Assembly (NCBI GenBank): GCA_964016885.1
Contig: OZ024747.1
Location: forward strand, 52,018,001 to 52,082,000
Source of the DNA: Eledone cirrhosa
Lineage: Eukaryota
DNA: 64,000 nt
Direction: 5' to 3'
The notes under the pieces were generated by a model. It was not told the DNA's origin. It searched no databases and saw nothing but the letters and a program-made list of their open reading frames with translations. The translations under genes were made by a program, and so were the position numbers. Positions 3,312 to 64,000 of this stretch are shown one piece after another (position 1 is the first letter of the stretch; every line of letters begins with the position of its first letter).

Positions 3312-3377
3312 TATTTTATTATATATATTTCAAAGGCAACCAAGGTAAATTATGGTGCGCTTTCATCAGATAAAATA
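3312..3377 (-). ncRNA. Minimal type I hammerhead ribozyme (family A)
   Basis: Minus: TATTTTAT-CTGATGA-AAGCGCACC..GGTTGCCTTT-GAAA-TATATA-TA-ATAAAATA. 8-bp stem I, palindromic stem III. Confidence 0.75.
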
Positions 3378-4732: not shown

Positions 4733-4798
4733 TATTTTATCTGATGAAAGCGCACCGTAATTTGCCTTGGTTGCCCTTGAAATATATATAATAAAATA
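4733..4798 (+). ncRNA. Minimal type I hammerhead ribozyme (family A)
   Basis: TATTTTAT-CTGATGA-AAGCGCACC(loop)GGTTGCCCTT-GAAA-TATATA-TA-ATAAAATA. Predicted cleavage after 4790. Confidence 0.8.
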
Positions 4799-7326: not shown

Positions 7327-8142
7327 GGGGAGGGGGAGAAGAAGGTTTCACCAAGATGAAAGCAGAAGAGAAATAACAACAGGCTGATTACCGATTGATG
7401 ACATCGGAATACAATTATTCTAAACATTTGGGGAAAGAATCATACAGAGACAAATAGAAAATAATATAACGGTCTTCCCAATCCTTAACGAGGTCGATAA
7501 TGAAAATACAAAATTGGAAAAAAAAAAAGAAAAAAAATGATTCCTGTCCTACAGAAATACACCAAAACCAAAAGTGAAAAAAGAAAGATGTACCCAAAAT
7601 GAAGAAGAAGAAGAAGAAGAAGAAGAAGAAGAAGAAGAAGAAGAAGAAGAAGAAGAAGAAGAAGAAGAAGAAGAAGAAGAAGAAGAAGAAGAAGAAGAAG
7701 AAGAAGGGGAATTGTTTCAAAGAAACCACGGTCCCTCTATATATTATGAAATGGTCTTGCGTCAGTTTCAACGATATGTGTTCCTATTGTTCGAGCAACG
7801 GAACAAACAGCTCTTTAAATGAGCGTGCAAGAGAGTGAGCAATCCACTCTTGAACATTTTACGTAATTCTCAAGGAAATTCATCATGACTCATAGTGCCA
7901 AGTTTGACCATTTGTATTAAAGATACAGTCCATCCGATGATATTCCTATCGTCACTATTTCACTATTTCACTATTTCACTCACAAGACGTCGGTGGAAAC
8001 GACACCATAGTAAATAATATTTACTGAAGATACCACAAAGTAGAAATGGAGTGGGTTCATAAAGATTGTGAAGTGAACGTCTTAACCATGCCCCATGCTA
8101 CATCTAAATATTTTAAATATACATTAATATACATGTAATACT

Positions 8143-11094: not shown

Positions 11095-11526
11095 AAAGTT
11101 CTATTTAAAATTGTTGGGATACAACAAGTAAATATTTTTATAACTGATATAAAGCACTCGACAAGTATTTGGAGTAGATATACGATATAATAAATGGAAA
11201 CTATATTTATAAAACCATATTTATTTCATTATACATATTTCAGGGATACCAAATTAAATTATGGTATGCCTTCATCAGACAAAATACAATATATAACAGT
11301 TTTACAAATAAGCTTTGACGTACCCTATTAAAATGAAACCATCGTTTTTGGAAGTCATCCGGATAGTGATTTGTTTATATTCCTTTAATAAGTCATAGTG
11401 TTAAGGACAATTACATAATTTAATTTGGTATCCCTAAGGACATACCATAATTTAATTTGGTATCCCTGAAATATGTATAATGAAATAAATATGGTTTTAT
11501 AAATATAGTTTCCATTTATTAATATC

Positions 11527-15222: not shown

Positions 15223-15685
<463 letters not shown>

Positions 15686-20661: not shown

Positions 20662-20727
20662 TATTTTATTATATATATTTCAAGAGCAACCAAGGTAAAT
20701 TATGGTGCGCTTTCATCAGATAAAATA
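20662..20727 (-). ncRNA. Minimal hammerhead ribozyme (family A)
   Basis: Reverse complement of the 20878-20943 motif. Confidence 0.8.
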
Positions 20728-20877: not shown

Positions 20878-20943
20878 TATTTTATCTGATGAAAGCGCAC
20901 CATAATTTACCTTGGTTGCTCTTGAAATATATATAATAAAATA
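20878..20943 (+). ncRNA. Minimal hammerhead ribozyme (family A)
   Basis: TATTTTAT-CTGATGA-AAGCGCACC..GGTTGCTCTT-GAAA-TATATA-TA-ATAAAATA. Confidence 0.8.
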
Positions 20944-21169: not shown

Positions 21170-22865
21170 ATAGCTCGAAACCAGATGTGAAATATAGGAC
21201 ACCATACCTGGAAATAGCCTAGACCAGATGTGAAACGTAGGACACCATAGCTGGAAATAGTCTAAGCCAGATGTGAAATGTTGGACACCATACCTGTAAA
21301 TAGTCTAGACCAGATGTGAAATGTGGGACACCATACCTGGAAATAGCCTAGACCAGATGTGGAATGTAGAACACCATACCTGGAAATAGCTTAGACCAGG
21401 TGTGAGATGTAGGACACCATAGCTGGAAATAGTCTAAGCCAGATGTGAAATGTAGGACACCATACCTGGAAATAGTCTAGACCAGATGTGAAATGTGGGA
21501 CACCATACCTGGAAATAGCCTAGACCAAATGTGGAATGAAGGACACCATACCTGGAAATAGCATAGACCAGGTGTGAGATGTTGGACACCATACCTGGAA
21601 ATAGCCTAGACCAGATGTGGAATGAAGGACACCATACCTGGAAATAGCCTAGACCAGATGTGGAATGTGGGACACCATACCTGGAAATAGCCTAGACCAG
21701 ATGTGGAATGAAGAACACCACACCTGGAAATAGCCTAGACCAGATGTGAAATGTGGGACACCATACCTGGAAATAGCCTAGACCAGATGTGGAATGAAGA
21801 ACACCACACCTGGAAATAGCCTAGACCAGGTGTGAGATGTTGGACACCATACCTGGAAATAGCCTAGACCAGATGTGAAATGTTGGACACCATACTGGAA
21901 ATAGCCTAGACCAGATGTGGAATGAAGAACACCACACCTGGAAATAGCCTAGACCAGGTGTGAGATGTTGGACACCATACCTGGAAATAGCCTAGACCAG
22001 ATGTGAAATGTTGGACACCATACTGGAAATAGCCTAGACCAGATGTGGAATGAAGAACACCACACCTGGAAATAGCCTAGACCAGGTGTGAGATGTTGGA
22101 CACCATACCTGGAAATAGCCTAGACCAGATGTGAAATGTTGGACACCATACTGGAAATAGCCTAGACCAGATGTGGAATGAAGAACACCACACCTGGAAA
22201 TAGCCTAGACCAGGTGTGAGATGTTGGACACCATACCTGGAAATAGCCTAGACCAGATGTGAAATGTTGGACACCATACTGGAAATAGCCTAGACCAGAT
22301 GTGGAATGAAGAACACCACACCTGGAAATAGCCTAGACCAGGTGTGAGATGTTGGACACCATACCTGGAAATAGCCTAGACCAGATGTGAAATGTTGGAC
22401 ACCATACTGGAAATAGCCTAGACCAGATGTGAAATGTTGGACACCATAGCTGGAAATAGACTAGACCAGGTGTGAGATGTAGGACACCATAGCTGGAAAT
22501 AGCCTAGACCAGATGTGAAATGTTGGACACCATAGCTGGAAATAGCCTAGACCAGGTGTGAAATGTTGGACACCATAGCTGGAAATAGCCTAGACCAGGT
22601 GTGAGATGTAGGACACCATAGCTGGAAATAGACTAGACCAGGTGTGAGATGTAGGACACCATAGCTGGAAATAGACTAGACCAGGTGTGAGATATAGGAC
22701 ACCATAGCTGGAAATAGCCTAGACCAGGTGTGAGATGTAGGGCACCATAGCTGGAAATAGCCTAGACCAGGTGTGAGATGTAGGACACCATAGCTGGAAA
22801 TAGCCTAGACCAGGTGTGAGATGTAGGGCACCATAGCTGGAAATAGACTAGACCAGGTGTGAAAT
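21170..22865. repeat. 43-bp tandem minisatellite (~40 units) with a 128-bp higher-order block
   Basis: Unit GGACACCATACCTGGAAATAGCCTAGACCAGATGTGAAATGT(A/T/G). CCAGATG occurs at 21181 and 21224. Confidence 0.95.
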
Positions 22866-26150: not shown

Positions 26151-26699
26151 TAGAAGTTGAACAGAAAAAAAAAACCCAGAAAAACATGAAGAAGAAATAA
26201 AGCTTACTTCTGTTGTTTCGATTTATTGATATGCTCCGGGCTGATATTTGAAGTTGCTCTCTCAAATCACCGGTGACATATGACTTAGAATAAGCAGACT
26301 CACAGCATCAACAAAACGGGGTATATAAGGCAATTATCAATTAGTCAGAGTTAGCTTCACCACAATATCATTAAGTCATTTGAATTCCTTAGTCTCGCCA
26401 TGAAAATTGAGCCCGTATGCATGTGTTAGAGTTCGAGACCTTCAATTGACATCTCTTGACCTTAAATAAATCAAGAATCCAATGTAATAATCTATATTAT
26501 CCTGCAATATGGGGGTACATTTTAATATTGGTAAGTATATATTTTTAAAAAAAAACGGAAAAATAAGGGAAAGACAAGGGCTCCAGGATTCAATAGTGTA
26601 AAAACACATACACATGTACACCATGTCCGAACACAGAAGAGCCGTACCCCCACCACCACCAGCTCTCTCTTTTATGAGCAAATGGGGTCCCAACTGCTG

Positions 26700-27203
26700 G
26701 CCGGCCCATGGTCCCGACGGACAGAATAGAGAAGGCGTTTCCTCGGAGGATGGTGAGGGGGATGCACTGGAAGAGCCATTCCAGCTCGCGAGGCGCACAC
26801 ATGCGGTTAGCCAGCTCAGCGCCTATGGTGGTGAGTAGAGAGATGCCATAGGGCAAATGACACCAGATGATCCATTGCTACGGGCTCGACAGCAAACTTG
26901 TCGGAGAGCGACCGATATTTGGAGAGTTTACGCTCCTCAACCCGAAGTGCAGCAGAACCTGGGTTAGTCGCAGACTGTACAAGGTTTCCACTGGAGAATG
27001 GGTCGCTGCATGTGGCATCTCTGACGAGAGGTTTACCACCGCCGAACGGGAAGGTGGTCATGCTGTCAGGCCATCTGCCGTCCCCTCGGTCTAGCTCCAC
27101 CGGCTCGAGCTGGGAGGGGAAGCCTGCAACATCCAAGCCATGATTTATGATTTCGTTGAGAGCAGCATGGTGTGGAAGGCGGCCGGGCCTATAGCAACAG
27201 GAG
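26700..27203 (-). pseudogene. CRE-like non-LTR retrotransposon, C-terminal restriction-like endonuclease fragment (frameshifted)
   Basis: Minus: SCCYRPGRLPHHAALNEIINHGLDVAGFPSQLEPVELDRGDGRWPDSMT..VRDATCSD..EERKLSKY..EPVA, then after a frameshift ELEWLFQCIPLTILRGNA. Paralog of 35945-36403. Confidence 0.85.
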
Positions 27204-27407
27204 TCTCTTACAATAAAATAGCTCTAGGAAAGAGATTTTTCCGTATATTATAATTGAATATAAAAGAGAGAAAAAAACAGATATATACATATTTGTGTTC
27301 AAATCGTAAGGGACCAGATTCGCTAAGGTGAAAAAAATGCTAACTATGGACAATAGGGTTTGCCAGACTCAATTTAAGAATAAATCAAGAAAATAAATAA
27401 CTACCAA

Positions 27408-27487
27408 TCACCCAGACAGCGTTTGGCTATGCTGTTTCACAAATTAATTGTGAAGAGGATTACCAATTTTTGCTCATCAGTGGGTGA
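27408..27487 (-). ncRNA. Canonical type I hammerhead ribozyme (family G), GUC site
   Basis: Minus: TCACCCA-CTGATGA-GCAAAAATTG..CAATTAATTTGT-GAAA-CAGC-ATAGCCAAAC-GCTG-TC-TGGGTGA. 7-bp stem I, full stem III, intact core. Confidence 0.9.
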
Positions 27488-27654
27488 AGAACTAGTAAGC
27501 CCCTCACTTCTAAGTATATCAGAAAACTGAATTGTGAGTACTCTGTACTATAGATAGTTTTAACGTTCGGCGTTGTTTGACTCAACAAGAGGTTTCCTTG
27601 GTTAGGTAGCGAGTTTGCGAGAATTATCTTGTAGGTTATTCTTGGAGTAATAAT

Positions 27655-27913
27655 AGTGAAAGTGTGAAGAATAACATGGTCAGGGCGAGTCTAAATTGCA
27701 TCACTCGACCTTAAATACAGTGTGTGTCTCTGATCAAATCATCTGCAGTATTCTGATGATCTGATCAGAGACACGCACTGTATTTAAGGTCGAGTGACGC
27801 AATTTCGAGTGATCAGCGGGCTTTAGACTCGCCCTGATCAATGAAACAATTGTTAATACTGTAAATAAAACCCTTTTTGTACAGCCGACCATGTTATTCT
27901 TCACCCTTTCACT
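27655..27913. repeat. Fold-back with a deleted left arm around a hammerhead (family I)
   Basis: 27655-27745 is a reverse complement of 27753-27913 with two internal deletions. Confidence 0.8.
27744..27863 (+). ncRNA. Type I hammerhead with extended (~83 nt) stem II (family I)
   Basis: TGCAGTATT-CTGATGA-TC-TGATCAG...CTGATCA-AT-GAAA-CAATTG-TT-AATACTGTA. 9-bp stem I, palindromic CAATTG stem III. Confidence 0.7.
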
Positions 27914-27933
27914 ATATATATATATATATATAT

Positions 27934-27991
27934 AAACAATTTTGATTGGTCGGTAGAGGTCATGACCTCTACCGACCAATCAAAATTGTTT
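27934..27991. repeat. Perfect 58-bp palindrome without loop
   Basis: AAACAATTTTGATTGGTCGGTAGAGGTCA|TGACCTCTACCGACCAATCAAAATTGTTT. Confidence 0.95.
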
Positions 27992-28520
27992 TGACCACAA
28001 GAATTTTTGCAACACCAAAGTAACGCTGGAGCCACTTTTTTAACATAAAAACAGGTCGAATTCCCAAAACTAATCAGATCAGAGCAAACAACACGGACAC
28101 TCTATCTCAAAATTATTTTTGAAAAGCATTTAGAAATGCGCAACCGGTAAAAACTTAAAAACTTAAAACCACAACTGAATACTAACCCATACAATCACTA
28201 ATACTCTTTTATTCCTAATTAAACCGTTTTTCAACTGTGAACAATTTGTCAGCATTTTCTATTCCGTTTACCAATATATAATAACTTGTGTGTTACACCT
28301 CTATTCTTTTAACTATATATATATATATATATATATCGGGAGAAAGTGATACAAACAAAAATAAATAAATGAATAATGAAATGAATAATCCAGACAACAT
28401 TGCTTTTGTTTTATTTTTTAACTTGAAAAATATAGGGGAATTATGAAAGATGTAATGAGGTGATTAAACAATGAATTTAATGACTAAATGAATGGGAACT
28501 AAAGAAGAAATACTAGAAAA

Positions 28521-49327: not shown

Positions 49328-49542
49328 CACAATATATTAATAAATGGAAACTATATTTATAAAACCATATTTATTTTATTATATATATTTCAAGGACAAC
49401 CAAGGCAAATTATGGTGCGCTTTCATCAGATAAAATACAGATTTGTTTTATAAATAAATATTGACATACCCGGAAAAAAAGACAACCTTAACGTTTGGAG
49501 CTTCCTGGATAGCTATCCAGTAAGCTCCAACCGTTAAGTTTG
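49328..49542 (-). mobile_element. Family A pLTR fragment with short terminal fold-back; hammerhead at 49372-49437
   Basis: Homologous to 3272-3452. CTGGATAG|CTATCCAG inversion centre ~49512. Confidence 0.8.
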
Positions 49543-50595: not shown

Positions 50596-50852
50596 ATCAA
50601 AAGATGGTTAAATGAGTTCCATGTATTTTATTATGCGCATTTCAAAAACAAATATCATCATGCAATAACATTTGTGTTTTCATCAGATAAAATAGGAAGA
50701 CATGATATGAAGGTTAAAAACACTTGTGAATAGTGCAGTTTTAAATCAACATATGATCTTATATATTATGTATACTCCAGTCCTACAAACTGTAGAGTGC
50801 TTCTTATCCGATATCTGCATTGCTTTATTGTACTACAATAAAACTCACCTCC

Positions 50853-57950: not shown

Positions 57951-58056
<106 letters not shown>

Positions 58057-58177
58057 GGATGGATAGAGAGAGAGAGAGATTGATATGTATACATAGATAA
58101 ATTGATATATATATATATGTATATATAATAATAAGTTGACGGGACTAGCATGGGTTTCACTGCTAGAATCGGTTGGT

Positions 58178-58258
<81 letters not shown>

Positions 58259-58624
58259 AGATTGATAGATAGACAGAAGGAGAGTGAGAGAGAGGGAGAG
58301 AAAGAGAAAAAAAAGAGAGTAGAGTAGAGTGAGAGGGAGATCGATAGAACGTTACATATTTCAGCACGAATTGGTTAAAAATTGAAAGAAAAGATCGAGA
58401 CAGAAAAACTAGAAGGAGAGTTGGGGTGGGAGGGAAGGAGGGGGAGAGGGGGGGGGGGATCTCGATAAAAGAAAGAATGAGAGAAAGAGAAGGAGCTAGA
58501 AGAGTGTTAGGAAGAGGAGAAAGTGAGTGAATGGTTGCTGCATGATTGGGTTTCGCCAGAGTATGAGAAGAAATTTTAATCCCTACGTAAAAGACGGACA
58601 TCAAAGATGGATACTCTCTGGATG

Positions 58625-60125
58625 TGTTGTGGTGGTGGTGGTGGGGTACTGGTGGTGGTGTACTGATGGTGGTGGTGGTGTACTGGTGGTGGTGGTGGTG
58701 GTGGTGTACTGGTGGTGGTGGTGGTGGTGGTGTACTGGTGGTGGTAAAGGTAGTGGTGGTGGTGGTGGTGTACTGGTGGTGGTGGTGGTGTACTGGTGGT
58801 GGTGGTGTACTGGTGGTAGTGTACTGGTGGTGGTGTACTGGTGGTGGTGGTGTACTGGTGGTGGTGTACTGGTGGTGTACTGGTGGTGGTGATGGTGTAC
58901 TGGTGGTGGTGTACTGGTGGTGGTGGTGGTGTACTGGTGGTGGTGGTGGTAATGGTAGTGGTGGTGGTGTACTGGTGGTGGTGGTGTGGTGTACTGGTGG
59001 TGGTGGTGTACTGGTGGTGGTGGTATACTGGTGTACTGGTGGTGGTAATGGTAGTGGTGGTGGTGGTATGGTGTACTGGTGGTGGTGGGGTACTGGTGGT
59101 GGTAATGGTAGTGGTGGTGGTGTACTGGTGGTGTACTGGTGGTGGTGGTGGTGTACTGGTGGTGGTGTACTGGTGGTGGTGGTGTAGTGTACTAGTGGTA
59201 GTAATGGTAGTGGTGGTGGTGTACTGGTGGTGGTGGTGTGGTGAACTGGTGGTAGTAATGGTAGTGGTGGTGGTGTACTGGTGGTGGTGGTGGTGGTATA
59301 CTGGTGGTGGTGGTATACTGGTGGTGTAATGGTGGTGGTGGTGTACTGGTGGTGGTGGTGTACTGGTGGTGGTGGTGTACTGGTGGTGGTGTACTGGTGG
59401 TGGTGGTGTACTGGTGGTGGTGGTGTACTGGTGGTGGTGGTGGTGGTGTACTGGTGGTGGTGGTATACTGGTGCTGGTGGTATACTGGTGGTGTAATGGT
59501 AGTGGTGGTGTAATGGTGGTGGTGGTGTACTGGTGGTGGTGGTGGTAGTGTACTGGTGGTGGTGGTATACTGGTGGTGTAATGGTGGTGGTGGTGTACTG
59601 GTGGTGGTGTACTGGTGGTGGTGGTGTACTGGTGGTGGTGGTGGTGTACTGGTGGCGGTGGTGTACTGGTGGTGGTGGTGTACTGGTGGTGTACTGGTGG
59701 TGGTGGTGTACTGGTGGTGTACTGGTGGTGTACTGGTGGTGGTGGTGTGGTGGTGGTGGTGTGGTGGTGGTGTACTGGTGGTGTACTGGTGGTGGTGGTG
59801 TACTGGTGGTGGTGGTGTATTGGTGGTGGTGGTGTAGTGTACTAGTGGTAGTAATGGTAGTGGTGGTGGTGTACTGGTGGTGGTGGTGTGGTGAACTGGT
59901 GGTAGTAATGGTAGTGGTGGTGTACTGGTGGAGGTAGTGTAGTGTACTAGTGGTAGTAATGGTAGTGGTGGTGGTTTACTGGTGGTGGCGGTGGGGTGTA
60001 CTAGTGGTAGTAATGGTAGTGGTGGTGGTGTACTGGTGGTGGTGGTGTGGTGTACTGGTGGTGGTGGTGTGGTGTAGAGATGGCAGTGATGGTGGTGGTG
60101 GTGGGGTTGTGGTGTAGTGATGGTG
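58625..60125. repeat. (GGT)n-GTACT variable minisatellite
   Basis: Direct reading. Confidence 0.95.
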
Positions 60126-60399
60126 GGGGTGGTGCTTGTGGTGGTAATGTTGAGGTGTTGTGTCGGTGGTAGTGGAATTGGTGGTAATGATGGTTGTGTT
60201 GCTGGCGCTGGTGTGAGTGCTGGTGATGGTGGTGGTGGTGGTTTGGTATTGTGTTTGAGTCCTTTGTTTGTGATGTATGGTATAGTCTTGTGTTGTAGTG
60301 GTGTGTTGCGTTGGTGTGGTGGTAATTGCGGTGCTGCCGCTGGTGGTGGCTGCGAGTAAAGGTCAAGGTCTCGTGTGTTGGTGTATTGCATTACAATTA

Positions 60400-63300
60400 A
60401 TTTGGTGGTGGTTGTGGTACTGTTGTTGGTAGCGTTGTGAGTGATGGTGGGATGTGTTAGTACATTGTATTATAGTTGGTTTAGTGGTGGTTGTGGTACT
60501 GTTGCTGGTGGTGATGTTGGTGGTTGTGAGTGATGGTGGGAGGTGTTAATACATTGTATTATAGTTGGTTTAGTGGTGGTTGTGATCCCGTTGCTGGTGG
60601 TGGTGTTGGTGGTTGTGAGTGATGGTGGGGTGTGTTAGTACATTGTATGATAGTTGGTTTAGTGGTGGTTGTGGTATTGTTGCTGGTGGTGGTGTTGGTG
60701 GTTGTGAGTGATGGTGGGATGTGTTAGTACATTGTATTATAGTTGGTTTAGTGGTGGTTGTGGTACTGTTGCTGGTGGTGGTGTTGGTGGTTGTGAGTGA
60801 TGGTGGGATGTGTTAGTACATTGTATTATAGTTGGTTTAGTGGTGGTTGTGGTATTGTTGCTGGTGGTGGTGTTGGTGGTTGTGAGTGATGGTGGGATGT
60901 GTTAGTACATTGTATTATAGTTGGTTTAGTGGTGGTTGTGGTATTGTTGCTGGTGGTGGTGTTGGTGGTTGTGAGTGATGGTGGGATGTGTTAGTACATT
61001 GTATTATAGTTGGTTTAGTGGTGGTTGTGGTATTGTTGCTGGTGGTGGTGTTGGTGGTTGTGAGTGATGGTGGGATGTGTTAGTACATTGTATTATAGTT
61101 GGTTTAGTGGTGGTTGTGGTATTGTTGCCGGTGGTGGTGTTGGTGGTTGTGAGTGGTGGTGGGATGTGTTAGTACATTGTATTATAGTTGGTTTAGTGGT
61201 GGTTGTGGTATTGTTGCTGGTGGTGGTGTTGGTGGTTGTGAGTGATGGTGGGATGTGTTAGTACATTGTATTATAGTTGGTTTAGTGGTGGCTGTGGTAT
61301 TGTTGCTGGTGGTGGTGTTGGTGGTTGTGAGTGATGGTGGGATGTGTTAGTACATTGTATTATAGTTGGTTTAGTGGTGGTTGTGGTATTGTTGCTGGTG
61401 GTGGTGTTGGTGGTTGTGAGTGATGGTGGGATGTGTTAGTACATTGTATTATAGTTGGTTTAGTGGTGGTTGTGGTACTGTTGCTGGTGGTGGTGTTGGT
61501 GGTTGTGAGTGATGGTGGGATGTGTTAGTACATTGTATTATAGTTGGTTTAGTGGTGGTTGTGGTACTGTTGCTGGTGGTGGTGTTGGTGGTTGTGAGTG
61601 GTGGTGGGATGTGTTAGTAGATTGTATGATAGTTGGTTTGGTGGTGGTTGTGGTACTGTTGCTGGTGGTGGTGTTGGTGGTTGTGAATGGTGGTGGGATG
61701 TGTTAGTACATTGTATGATAGTTGGTTTAGTGGTGGTTGTGGTACTGTTGCTGGTGGTGGTGTTGGTGGTTGTGAGTGATGGTGGGAGGTGTTAATACAT
61801 TGTATTATAGATGGTTTAGTGGTGGTTGTGGTACTGTTGCTGGTGGTGTTGGTGGTTGTGAGTGATGGTGGCAGGTGTTAATACATTGTATTATAGATGG
61901 TTTAGTGGTGGTTGTGGTACTGTTGCTGGTGGTGGTGGTGTTGGTGGTTGTGAGTGATGGTGGGATGTGTTAGTACATTGTATTATAGTTGGTTTAGTGG
62001 TGGTTGTGGTACTGTTGCTGGTGGTGGTGTTGGTGGTTGTGAGTGATGGTGGGATGTGTTAGTACATTGTATTATAGTTGGTTTAGTGGTGGTTGTGGTC
62101 CCGTTGCTGGTGGTGGTGTTGGTGGTTGTAGGTGATGGTGGGATGTGTTAGTACATTGTATTATAGTTGGTTTAGTGGTGGTTGTGGTATTGTTGCTGGT
62201 GGTGGTGTTGGTGGTTGTGGTATTGTTGCTGGTGGTGGTGTTGGTGGTTGTGAGTGATGGTGGGATGTGTTAGAACATTGTATTATAGTTGGTTTAGTGG
62301 TGGTTGTGGTACTGTTGCTGGTGGTGGTGTTGGTGGTGGTTGTGAGTGATGGTGGGATGTGTTAGTAGATTGTATGATAGTTGGTTTAGTGGTGGTTGTG
62401 GTACTGTTGCTGGTGGTGGTGTTGGTGGTGGTTGTGAGTGATGGTGGGATGTGTTAGTACATTGTATGATAGTTGGTTTAGTGGTGGTTGTGGTACTGTT
62501 GCTGATGATGGTGTTGGTGGTTGTGAGTGATGGTGGGATGTGTTAGTACATTGTATTATAGTTGGTTTAGTGGTGGTTGTGGTACTGTTGCTGGTGGTGG
62601 TGTTGGTGGTTGTGAGTGATGGTGGGATGTGTTAGTACATTGTATTATAGTTGGTTTAGTGGTGGTCGTGGTACTGTTGCTGGTGGTGGTGTTGGTGGTT
62701 GTGAGTGATGGTGGGATGTGTTAGTACATTGTATTATAGTTGGTTTAGTGGTGGTTGTGGTACTGTTGCTGGTGGTGGTGTTGGTGGTTGTGAGTGATGG
62801 TGGGATGTGTTAGTACATTGTATTATAGTTGGTTTAGTGGTGGTTGTGGTACTATTGCTGGTGGTGGTGTTGGTGGTTGTGAGTGGTGGTGGGATGTGTT
62901 AGTACATTGTATGATAGTTGGTTTAGTGGTGGTTGTGGTACTATTGCTGGTGGTGGTGTTGGTGGTTGTGAGTGGTGGTGGGATGTGTTAGTACATTGTA
63001 TGATAGTTCGTTTAGTGGTGGTTGTGGTACTCTTACTGGTGGTGGTGTTGGTGGTTGTGAGTGGTGGTGGGATGTGTTAGTACATTGTATGATAGTTGGT
63101 TTATTGGTGGTTGTGGTACTGTTGCTGGTGGTGGTGTTGGTGGTTGTGAGTGATGGTGGGATGTGTTAGTACATTGTATGATAGTTGGTTTAGTGGTGGT
63201 TGTGGTACTGTTGCTGGTGGTGGTGTTGGTGGTTGTGAGTGATGGTGGGATGTGTTAGTACATTGTATTATAGTTGCTTTAGTGGTGGTTGTGGTATTGT

Positions 63301-64000
63301 TGCTGGTGGTGGTGTTGGTGGTTGTGAGTGATGGTGGGATGTGTTAGTAGATTGTATTATAGTTGGTTTGGTGGTGGTTGTGGTATTGTTGCTGGTGGTG
63401 GTATTGGTGGTTGTGAGTGATGGTGGGATGTGTTAGTACATTGTATTATAGTTGGTTTGGTGGTGGTTGTGGTATTGTTGCTGGTGGTGGTGTTGGTGGT
63501 TGTGAGTGATGGTGGGATGTGTTAGTACATTGTATTATAGTTGGTTTAGTGGTGCTTGTGGTACTGTTGCTGGTGGTGGTGTTGGTGGTTGTGAGTGATG
63601 GTGCGATGTGTTAGTACATTGTATGATAGTTGGTTTAGTGGTGGTTGTGGTACTGTTGCTGGTGGTGGTGTTGGTGGTTGTGAGTGATGGTGGGATGTGT
63701 TAGTACATTGTATTATAGTTGCTTTAGTGGTGGTTGTGGTACTGTTGCTGGTGGTGGTGTTGGTGGTTGTGAGTGATGGTGGGATGTGTTAGTACATTGT
63801 ATTATAGTTGGTTTAGTGGTGGTTGTGGTACTGTTGCTGGTGGTGGTGTTGGTGGTTGTGAGTGATGGTGGGATGTGTTAGTACATTGTATTATAGTTGC
63901 TTTAGTGGTGGTTGTGGTACTGTTGCTGGTGGCGGTGTTGGTGGTTGTGAGTGATGGTGGGATGTGTTAGTACATTGTATTATAGTTGCTTTAGTGGTGG
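60400..64000. repeat. 89-bp G/T-rich tandem satellite (~40 units, runs off the window)
   Basis: Unit GTGAGTGATGGTGGGATGTGTTAGTACATTGTATTATAGTTGGTTTAGTGGTGGTTGTGGTACTGTTGCTGGTGGTGGTGTTGGTGGTT. ORF starts at 62794, 62883 and 62972 confirm the 89-bp period. Confidence 0.95.

Follow-up and report, generated by a model that had tools for sequence, protein, structure and literature searches.

A truncated hammerhead repeat of Eledone cirrhosa, likely from an undescribed family of Penelope-type non-LTR retrozymes

Background

Non-LTR retrozymes of animals (Cervera & de la Pena 2020, PMC7229834; Li, Clavereau & Pollet 2026, bioRxiv 10.64898/2026.07.22.740005) are described as non-coding, AT-rich units with one type I hammerhead ribozyme each, found as tandem junctions and dispersed monomers beside Penelope-like elements (PLEs). 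In the 2026 preprint, animal retrozymes are interpreted as non-autonomous derivatives of PLEs, and 1 of 9 elements is reported to cleave. The repeat family reported here, one copy of which lies in a window of 64,000 nt of Eledone cirrhosa (GCA_964016885.1, contig OZ024747.1, 52,018,001 to 52,082,000; positions below are those of the window), is alike in all these genomic features. Its unit of 518 nt is larger than the ~220-390 nt retrozymes of PMC7229834 and falls within the 51-972 bp of the preprint. It differs in occurring mostly as dispersed insertions of 0.5-1.3 units with inverted arms instead of long arrays, in a helix III of 5 bp with a 5-10-nt loop (1-2 bp in the described retrozymes) and in a long interrupted helix II. 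Circular RNAs of retrozymes are documented in coral, mussel and axolotl (PMC7229834), whereas the present family is known from genomic DNA.

The hallmarks of PLEs, as given by Craig et al. 2021 (PMC8557442, covering the Hydra clade and non-autonomous Chlamys such as MRC1), are partial tandems, inverted 5' copies and a tail of 30-40 bp at one end only; insertions are mostly 5'-truncated partial tandems, (TA)n targets are described for Hydra and Naiad, and all members of the Hydra clade are reported to carry canonical hammerheads. The family shares partial tandems, 5' inversions and an optional tail at one end with PLEs (PMC4209133; PMC8557442), and (TA)n targets with Hydra and Naiad, while it differs from autonomous PLEs in lacking an RT-GIY-YIG ORF and in a tail of ~85 nt. 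In metazoans, helix III of most type I motifs is limited to 1-2 pairs, and dimers are needed (Cervera & de la Pena 2014, PMC4209133). The present hammerhead is not of the minimal dimer type of metazoan PLE pseudo-LTRs (pLTRs), and its helix III is closer in size to that of the monomer-active PLE variants of fungi and protists.

For Poseidon-Ac of Anolis (Frangieh et al. 2024, PMC11167929), both strands were nicked and extended in vitro, and the tail corresponds to the sequence separating two internal RT start sites, both downstream of the hammerhead. AT-rich targets, priming of both strands, insertion of uncut RNA as template and two internal sites defining a tail are common to Poseidon-Ac and, as far as insertions tell, to the present family. 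Poseidon-Ac is autonomous, with an ORF starting in the hammerhead, whereas the family is non-coding, its start sites are deduced from genomic ends, and each arm uses a different site. The pDo500 repeat of Dolichopoda cave crickets (PMC2837043) is similar in its ~500-bp unit and in a hammerhead kept by compensatory changes; it was described as satellite DNA, whereas the present family is dispersed and has hallmarks of retrotransposition.

The hammerhead and its predicted fold

The motif at 27487-27408 of the minus strand consists of stem I (UCACCCA/UGGGUGA, 27487-27481 with 27414-27408), the core segment C3-A9 CUGAUGA (27480-27474), stem II (27439..27473), the core GAAA (27438-27435) and stem III (ACAGC/GCUGU, 5 bp, 27416..27435) with a non-palindromic loop of 10 nt (27430-27421). 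Stem II has a G10.1-U11.1 wobble, four further pairs, an internal bulge, a distal stem of 5 bp and a 13-nt loop. By hammerhead numbering, the predicted scissile bond follows C17 of GUC, between 27415 and 27414, in agreement with an earlier sequence-only reading, in which stem I, CUGAUGA, GAAA, stem III with its loop and GUC had also been correctly recognised. CUGANGA, GAAA, UH, three helices and an open stem I are all present; judged on its letters, the motif is a true type I hammerhead. Folding predicts an extended stem I (27402..27497), with six extra pairs (27497-27492 with 27407-27402) past a 4-nt bulge (27491-27488) that is a candidate loop 1. Neither this extension nor the length and interruption of stem II had been recognised in the earlier reading. 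The extended helix was paired in 95% of the cells of a 50-copy alignment, and the stem I bulge and the stem II internal loop were kept across the aligned subfamilies; no contact between loop 1 and loop 2 was identified in them.

A strict descriptor (at least 6 pairs in stem I, 4 in stem II and 4 in stem III beyond A15.1-U16.1) gave one match in the window and none in 100 locally dinucleotide-resampled windows. With a model (R1) built from the hammerhead family, window copy included, this copy scored 112.9 bits and nothing else in the window fell below E 0.1. No Rfam hammerhead model, the Infernal check that had been proposed, matched at gathering score in the whole window, and the 38 Rfam matches at E<=10 in 27000-28000 included none to hammerhead models, probably because helices II and III exceed the model lengths. 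The expectation that the motif folds as a monomer held up: its 5-bp helix III removes the need for a dimer that the nine minimal motifs of the window have.

The core-proximal pair of stem II (27473/27439) is where the copy departs from the canonical form. G10.1-C11.1 is described as a highly conserved hammerhead pair (PMC4209133); the window copy has G-U. Of 82 distinct full copies of the family, some of which duplicate one another, 76 have C at position 11.1, 4 have T and 2 have A; nine carry A in place of G12, the pattern that decay of the C11.1-G12 CpG would produce. The change of C11.1 to U at this CpG completes a competing hairpin of 7 bp (27436..27454, minus strand; 27454-27448 with 27442-27436). 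It is part of the minimum free energy fold, which does not contain the hammerhead, and is predicted to sequester G12, A13 and A14. The gap between the free and the hammerhead-constrained ensemble was 8.1 kcal/mol (rank 43 of 54), with a median of 5.2 kcal/mol for 52 G-C copies and values of 0.65 to 6.9 kcal/mol in the eight nearest relatives; since ViennaRNA takes no account of tertiary contacts and also scores the active fold as unfavourable in the majority of intact copies, the gap only ranks the window copy as poor, and the misfolding argument is a relative one.

The description of the motif as fully canonical therefore does not stand: stem II opens on G10.1-U11.1 where 76 of 82 copies have C11.1, and the minimum free energy fold lacks the hammerhead. 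Nor can it be called the best candidate for an active ribozyme, given the missing C11.1, the rival hairpin and its fold rank. The window copy is predicted to cleave poorly, efficient cleavage being unlikely; natural copies with C11.1 (L011, L199 and L034) are better candidates.

Genomic setting of the copy

The hammerhead belongs to a truncated copy of 335 bp (27202..27536, minus strand) of a unit of ~518 nt, which was aligned by BLAST of the L018 unit against the window over q420-515 and q1-260 (89.6% and 87.7% identity; q1 is G12 of the hammerhead). An 18-nt deletion lies just 3' of stem I, and neither end of the copy is a canonical end of the family. With only one hammerhead, the copy is unable to make a unit circle. 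It is itself ordinary decayed repeat DNA, and its decay would have comprised the CpG change at C11.1, the 18-nt deletion and the loss of both ends.

The copy is stacked between other repeats. On its 5' side (27533..27912, limits approximate, minus strand) lies another short repeat, likewise multicopy and with an inverted 5' arm; a (TA)n tract (27913..27934) stands at its far end. This neighbour lacks its last ~42 nt, and the hammerhead element is joined there: matching stops at the junction in all 39 other top hits (the best of 2198 candidates), and 29 other copies of the repeat continue into their own 3' sequence, nearly all reaching (TA)n ~40 nt on. The junction could have arisen by a template switch in the course of one insertion or by a deletion afterwards. 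The upstream 150 nt were thus rejected as the end of an ORF contiguous with the hammerhead, being a separate repeat. The neighbour's family (L122-L150 besides the copy at 27533-27912) has (TA)n ends, inverted 5' arms and, apparently, short and long ends of its own; no hammerhead was noticed in the inspected parts of these copies.

On the 3' side (26690..27201, far limit approximate, minus strand) lies the broken 3' part of a non-LTR retrotransposon, which has a restriction-like endonuclease motif (frame 27223-26819) and which we take to be CRE/NeSL-like; a related copy is found at 36412-35930. Pfam returned nothing for three neighbouring frames, this endonuclease frame among them. No host gene was evident around the copy from the ORFs, a view that short exons would escape. 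Contigs from four sequencing runs of one study were short, and none bridged the window junctions or bore on U11.1. Long and perfect inverted repeats at 27933-27989 and 27697-27801 score below gathering against miRNA models; the miRNA matches near the hammerhead are likely due to the inverted arms of the stacked neighbouring repeats.

Elsewhere in the window, the descriptor search returned eight minimal type I hammerheads that fall into three sequence types and have a palindromic helix III, at 3312-3377(-), 4733-4798(+), 11222-11286(-), 15312-15382(-), 20662-20727(-), 20878-20943(+), 49372-49437(-) and 50624-50694(-). Those at 20727/20878 form a head-to-head pair, these types recur at other genomic loci, and a ninth match (8016-8112) looks like chance. 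The window also holds a minisatellite at 21180-22865 (43-bp period, 39 copies, 90% matches), and 58001-64000 shows extreme strand skew (GC skew ~+0.8, AT skew ~-0.5), probably from a long TG-rich simple repeat.

The repeat family

BLAST of the unit and the model R1 search bore out that the hammerhead is single-copy in the window; genome-wide it is one of many. The earlier reading had not recognised it as part of a mobile element. A 141-nt hammerhead query against the 3.0-Gb assembly gave 1712 first-look candidates, of which the best 40, the number scored in each DNA search, were 88-94% identical (self excluded). A pattern combining the 5' half of stem I, CUGAYGAG and C11.1-GAAAC, stricter than the window copy itself can match, was found 750 times in the genome and never with the reversed control. 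The whole core was kept in 52 of the 82 full copies, and 29 of the 82 had G-C and all stems as well.

Hammerheads are spaced by 518-519 nt in L012 and L018 and by 515-519 nt in three folded units. The unit closes on itself, with a q518-q1 junction in every subfamily. It is AT-rich (33-36% GC), has one type I hammerhead and no long frame, and translation of the tandem unit in six frames meets stops throughout. Two or more hammerheads in tandem occur in L012, L018, L058 and L198, and in 13 arms of the 151 insertions analysed, a sample in which long copies are over-represented; the majority of copies cover less than ~1.3 units. The tandem locus at C2:228.49 Mb holds 2.4 units, and private mutations common to its first two units suggest local duplication. 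Circular folding of three units gave energies 2 to 4 SD lower than those of mononucleotide-shuffled sequences, which make a weak control. At L058:1250-2650, summed contig depth in q30-298 exceeded that of the remaining unit by 10- to 50-fold. Although depth does not measure copy number, this fits a large excess of 3'-only copies without a hammerhead.

At least six subfamilies can be distinguished by eye. A sister subfamily (82 exact matches) is ~80% identical and has ACGGU/ACCGU as stem III, and 20 loci chosen for divergent stem II gave further subfamilies, all with a ~518-nt unit and mostly with the same two ends. Helix III has 4-5 pairs across subfamilies. Pairs changed on both sides comprise A-U to G-C in stem I, A-U to G-C and C-G to U-A in stem III, and A-U to U-A in distal stem II. 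In the subfamily alignment (A2, hand-picked, 24 rows, 22 distinct), cross-subfamily covariation was 0.175 against 0.107 in shuffles (0/500) and at most 0.047 when slid; the cells count inherited changes repeatedly, so that the signal amounts to about four events, i.e. few subfamily events. Covariation was weaker in the window copy's own group (A1, 50 copies), where pairs changed on both sides were equalled by 31 of 500 shuffles. As far as aligned genomic copies reveal it, the compensatory changes show that the hammerhead fold was kept in the source lineages.

No description of this family was found in the literature on hammerhead ribozymes in octopus, retrozymes in cephalopods and PLEs, and three family motifs were absent from a supplement of PMC8557442. 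By this literature, the window copy likely belongs to a previously undescribed family within a known kind, the Penelope-type non-LTR retrozymes; the family may already be listed in other retrozyme or PLE supplements or in Repbase/Dfam.

Insertion ends and template

The insertions follow a Penelope-like pattern of 5' truncation, partial tandem, inverted 5' arm and a tail at one end only. The 5' ends are spread along the unit. The internal 3' ends cluster: 118 of 176 lie within q200-219 or q290-299, most of them continuing into (TA)n. They define two fixed 3' ends, short and long, ~85 nt apart. Arms on both strands were found in 92 of the 151 insertions, head to head in all but one of these (91). 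When both ends were canonical (46 two-armed insertions), 43 paired a short with a long end, 2 were short-short and 1 long-long; the first 103 insertions had given 29 of 32. One short and one long end per insertion matches both the PLE tail at one end and the two start sites of Poseidon-Ac, and by analogy we infer that two-site priming of the Poseidon-Ac type, with a tail of ~85 nt, fits this family. The near-strict pairing (43/46) lends genomic support to priming of both strands from two internal sites.

A separate enrichment concerns the 5' ends, 33 of 230 of which lie at q127-153 (~2.5x an even spread, with no sharp wall; five very long spans were set aside as likely alignment artefacts). 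These ends (e.g. L206, L212, L228) lie just upstream of a palindromic TA-rich hairpin, and could mark a transcription start or an RT stop.

In a sample of 30 copies taken without bias, in coordinate order, with a pattern starting at the cut site, the scissile bond was read through in all 30 and none ended at the cut; TGTC upstream of the cut was kept exactly in 418 of 507 copies. The inserted RNA was therefore uncut or re-ligated, and integration from a hammerhead-cut linear unit was rejected (0/30). Read-through in the genome fits circles and uncut precursors alike and cannot separate them. Hammerhead mutants of Poseidon-Ac still insert in vitro (PMC11167929).

Penelope-like elements in the genome

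Neither a shared ORF at a fixed place nor an RT-GIY-YIG ORF contiguous with the copies was found beside 136 partly overlapping loci. PLE fragments adjoin some copies (e.g. L063, L175); their families and orientations differ, as expected of nested insertions. At L063:2262-2640 and in L175, retrozyme arms directly adjoin coding sequence of Hydra-like PLEs, with no (TA)n in between; at L063, the junction shows ~4 nt of microhomology and lies 6 nt short of the long end. These junctions are either nested insertions or template switches.

An abundant young Hydra-like PLE (L091-L120; 71139 first-look candidates, many open frames of 713 aa) has top matches 95-97% identical in protein, with an RWR motif and a CxCX5C linker like the Hydra clade. 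Comparison of this one PLE family with the unit found no common DNA beyond short AT-rich matches, and no CTGANGA occurred within 800 nt after the matched part of 29 of its copies. It was rejected as the parent on both grounds, and no autonomous partner was found among the PLE fragments at the 136 loci or in the Hydra-like family comparison.

Discussion

We consider it probable that the window copy is a decayed, truncated copy of a ~518-nt non-coding hammerhead repeat, likely a non-autonomous PLE (non-LTR retrozyme) copied in trans by a Penelope-like RT/GIY-YIG endonuclease. Source loci longer than one unit would be transcribed, and the hammerhead, folding as a monomer through its 5-bp helix III, would cut the multimers into units, which would likely be closed into circles. 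A Penelope-like protein would then bind the part 3' of the hammerhead and nick both strands of a (TA)n tract; with uncut or re-ligated RNA as template, cDNA would be primed from two internal sites (~q210 and ~q297), one per strand, and two 5'-truncated cDNAs would join head to head. Self-cleavage, transcripts and circles of the family are predictions of this scheme.

The same insertions could be solo pLTR fragments of an autonomous Penelope-like element and not a self-standing non-coding family, which we judge improbable. PLE insertions are mostly 5'-truncated partial tandems (PMC8557442), rare full-length parents could have escaped searches in which the best 40 candidates were scored, and PLE fragments do abut some copies (L063, L175); these fragments, however, are of mixed family and orientation, like nested insertions. 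Moreover, q518 joins q1 in every subfamily, copies that extend past q298 enter the next unit and not an ORF, and the tandem unit is full of stops in six frames. Local tandem duplication at one locus is what would be expected of a satellite-like repeat spread at the DNA level with the hammerhead as a relic. Such an origin is extremely improbable, as the dispersal of the copies, their polar 5' truncation, the fixed 3' ends and the head-to-head arms all indicate reverse transcription, and the compensatory changes show that the fold was kept in the source lineages.

That the window copy itself is an active ribozyme, possibly used by the host, as first proposed, is very improbable. Its core nucleotides, stem I and stem III are all intact, its G-U can still pair, the extended stem I is present, and nearest-neighbour energies leave out tertiary stabilisation. 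Against this stand the change of C11.1 to U, the rival hairpin and the fold-stability rank, a divergence of ~11% from the reference unit with both ends truncated, and a surrounding of stacked repeat fragments in which the ORFs reveal no host gene; of nine predicted Xenopus retrozymes, only one cleaved in vitro (preprint, bioRxiv 10.64898/2026.07.22.740005).

Within the preferred reading of a non-autonomous PLE copied in trans, a bolder version is possible, if doubtful: selection may have maintained a monomer-competent hammerhead with long helix III in at least six subfamilies because the obligatory template would be a self-cleaved and re-ligated 518-nt circle. On this circle a dimeric Penelope-like RT would initiate at two fixed positions 85 nt apart, using one for each DNA strand. 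If true, this would be a natural system showing what Penelope-type hammerheads do, with a tail of twice the described lengths. Hammerheads are reported to be dispensable for PLE insertion in vitro (PMC11167929), and PLE hammerheads to be possibly parasitic (PMC8557442). The family offers a test case for the role of the hammerhead in PLEs, the fold having been kept although the element codes for nothing else; its interest lies in a long helix III in an animal, in compensatory evolution and in the rule of one short and one long end.
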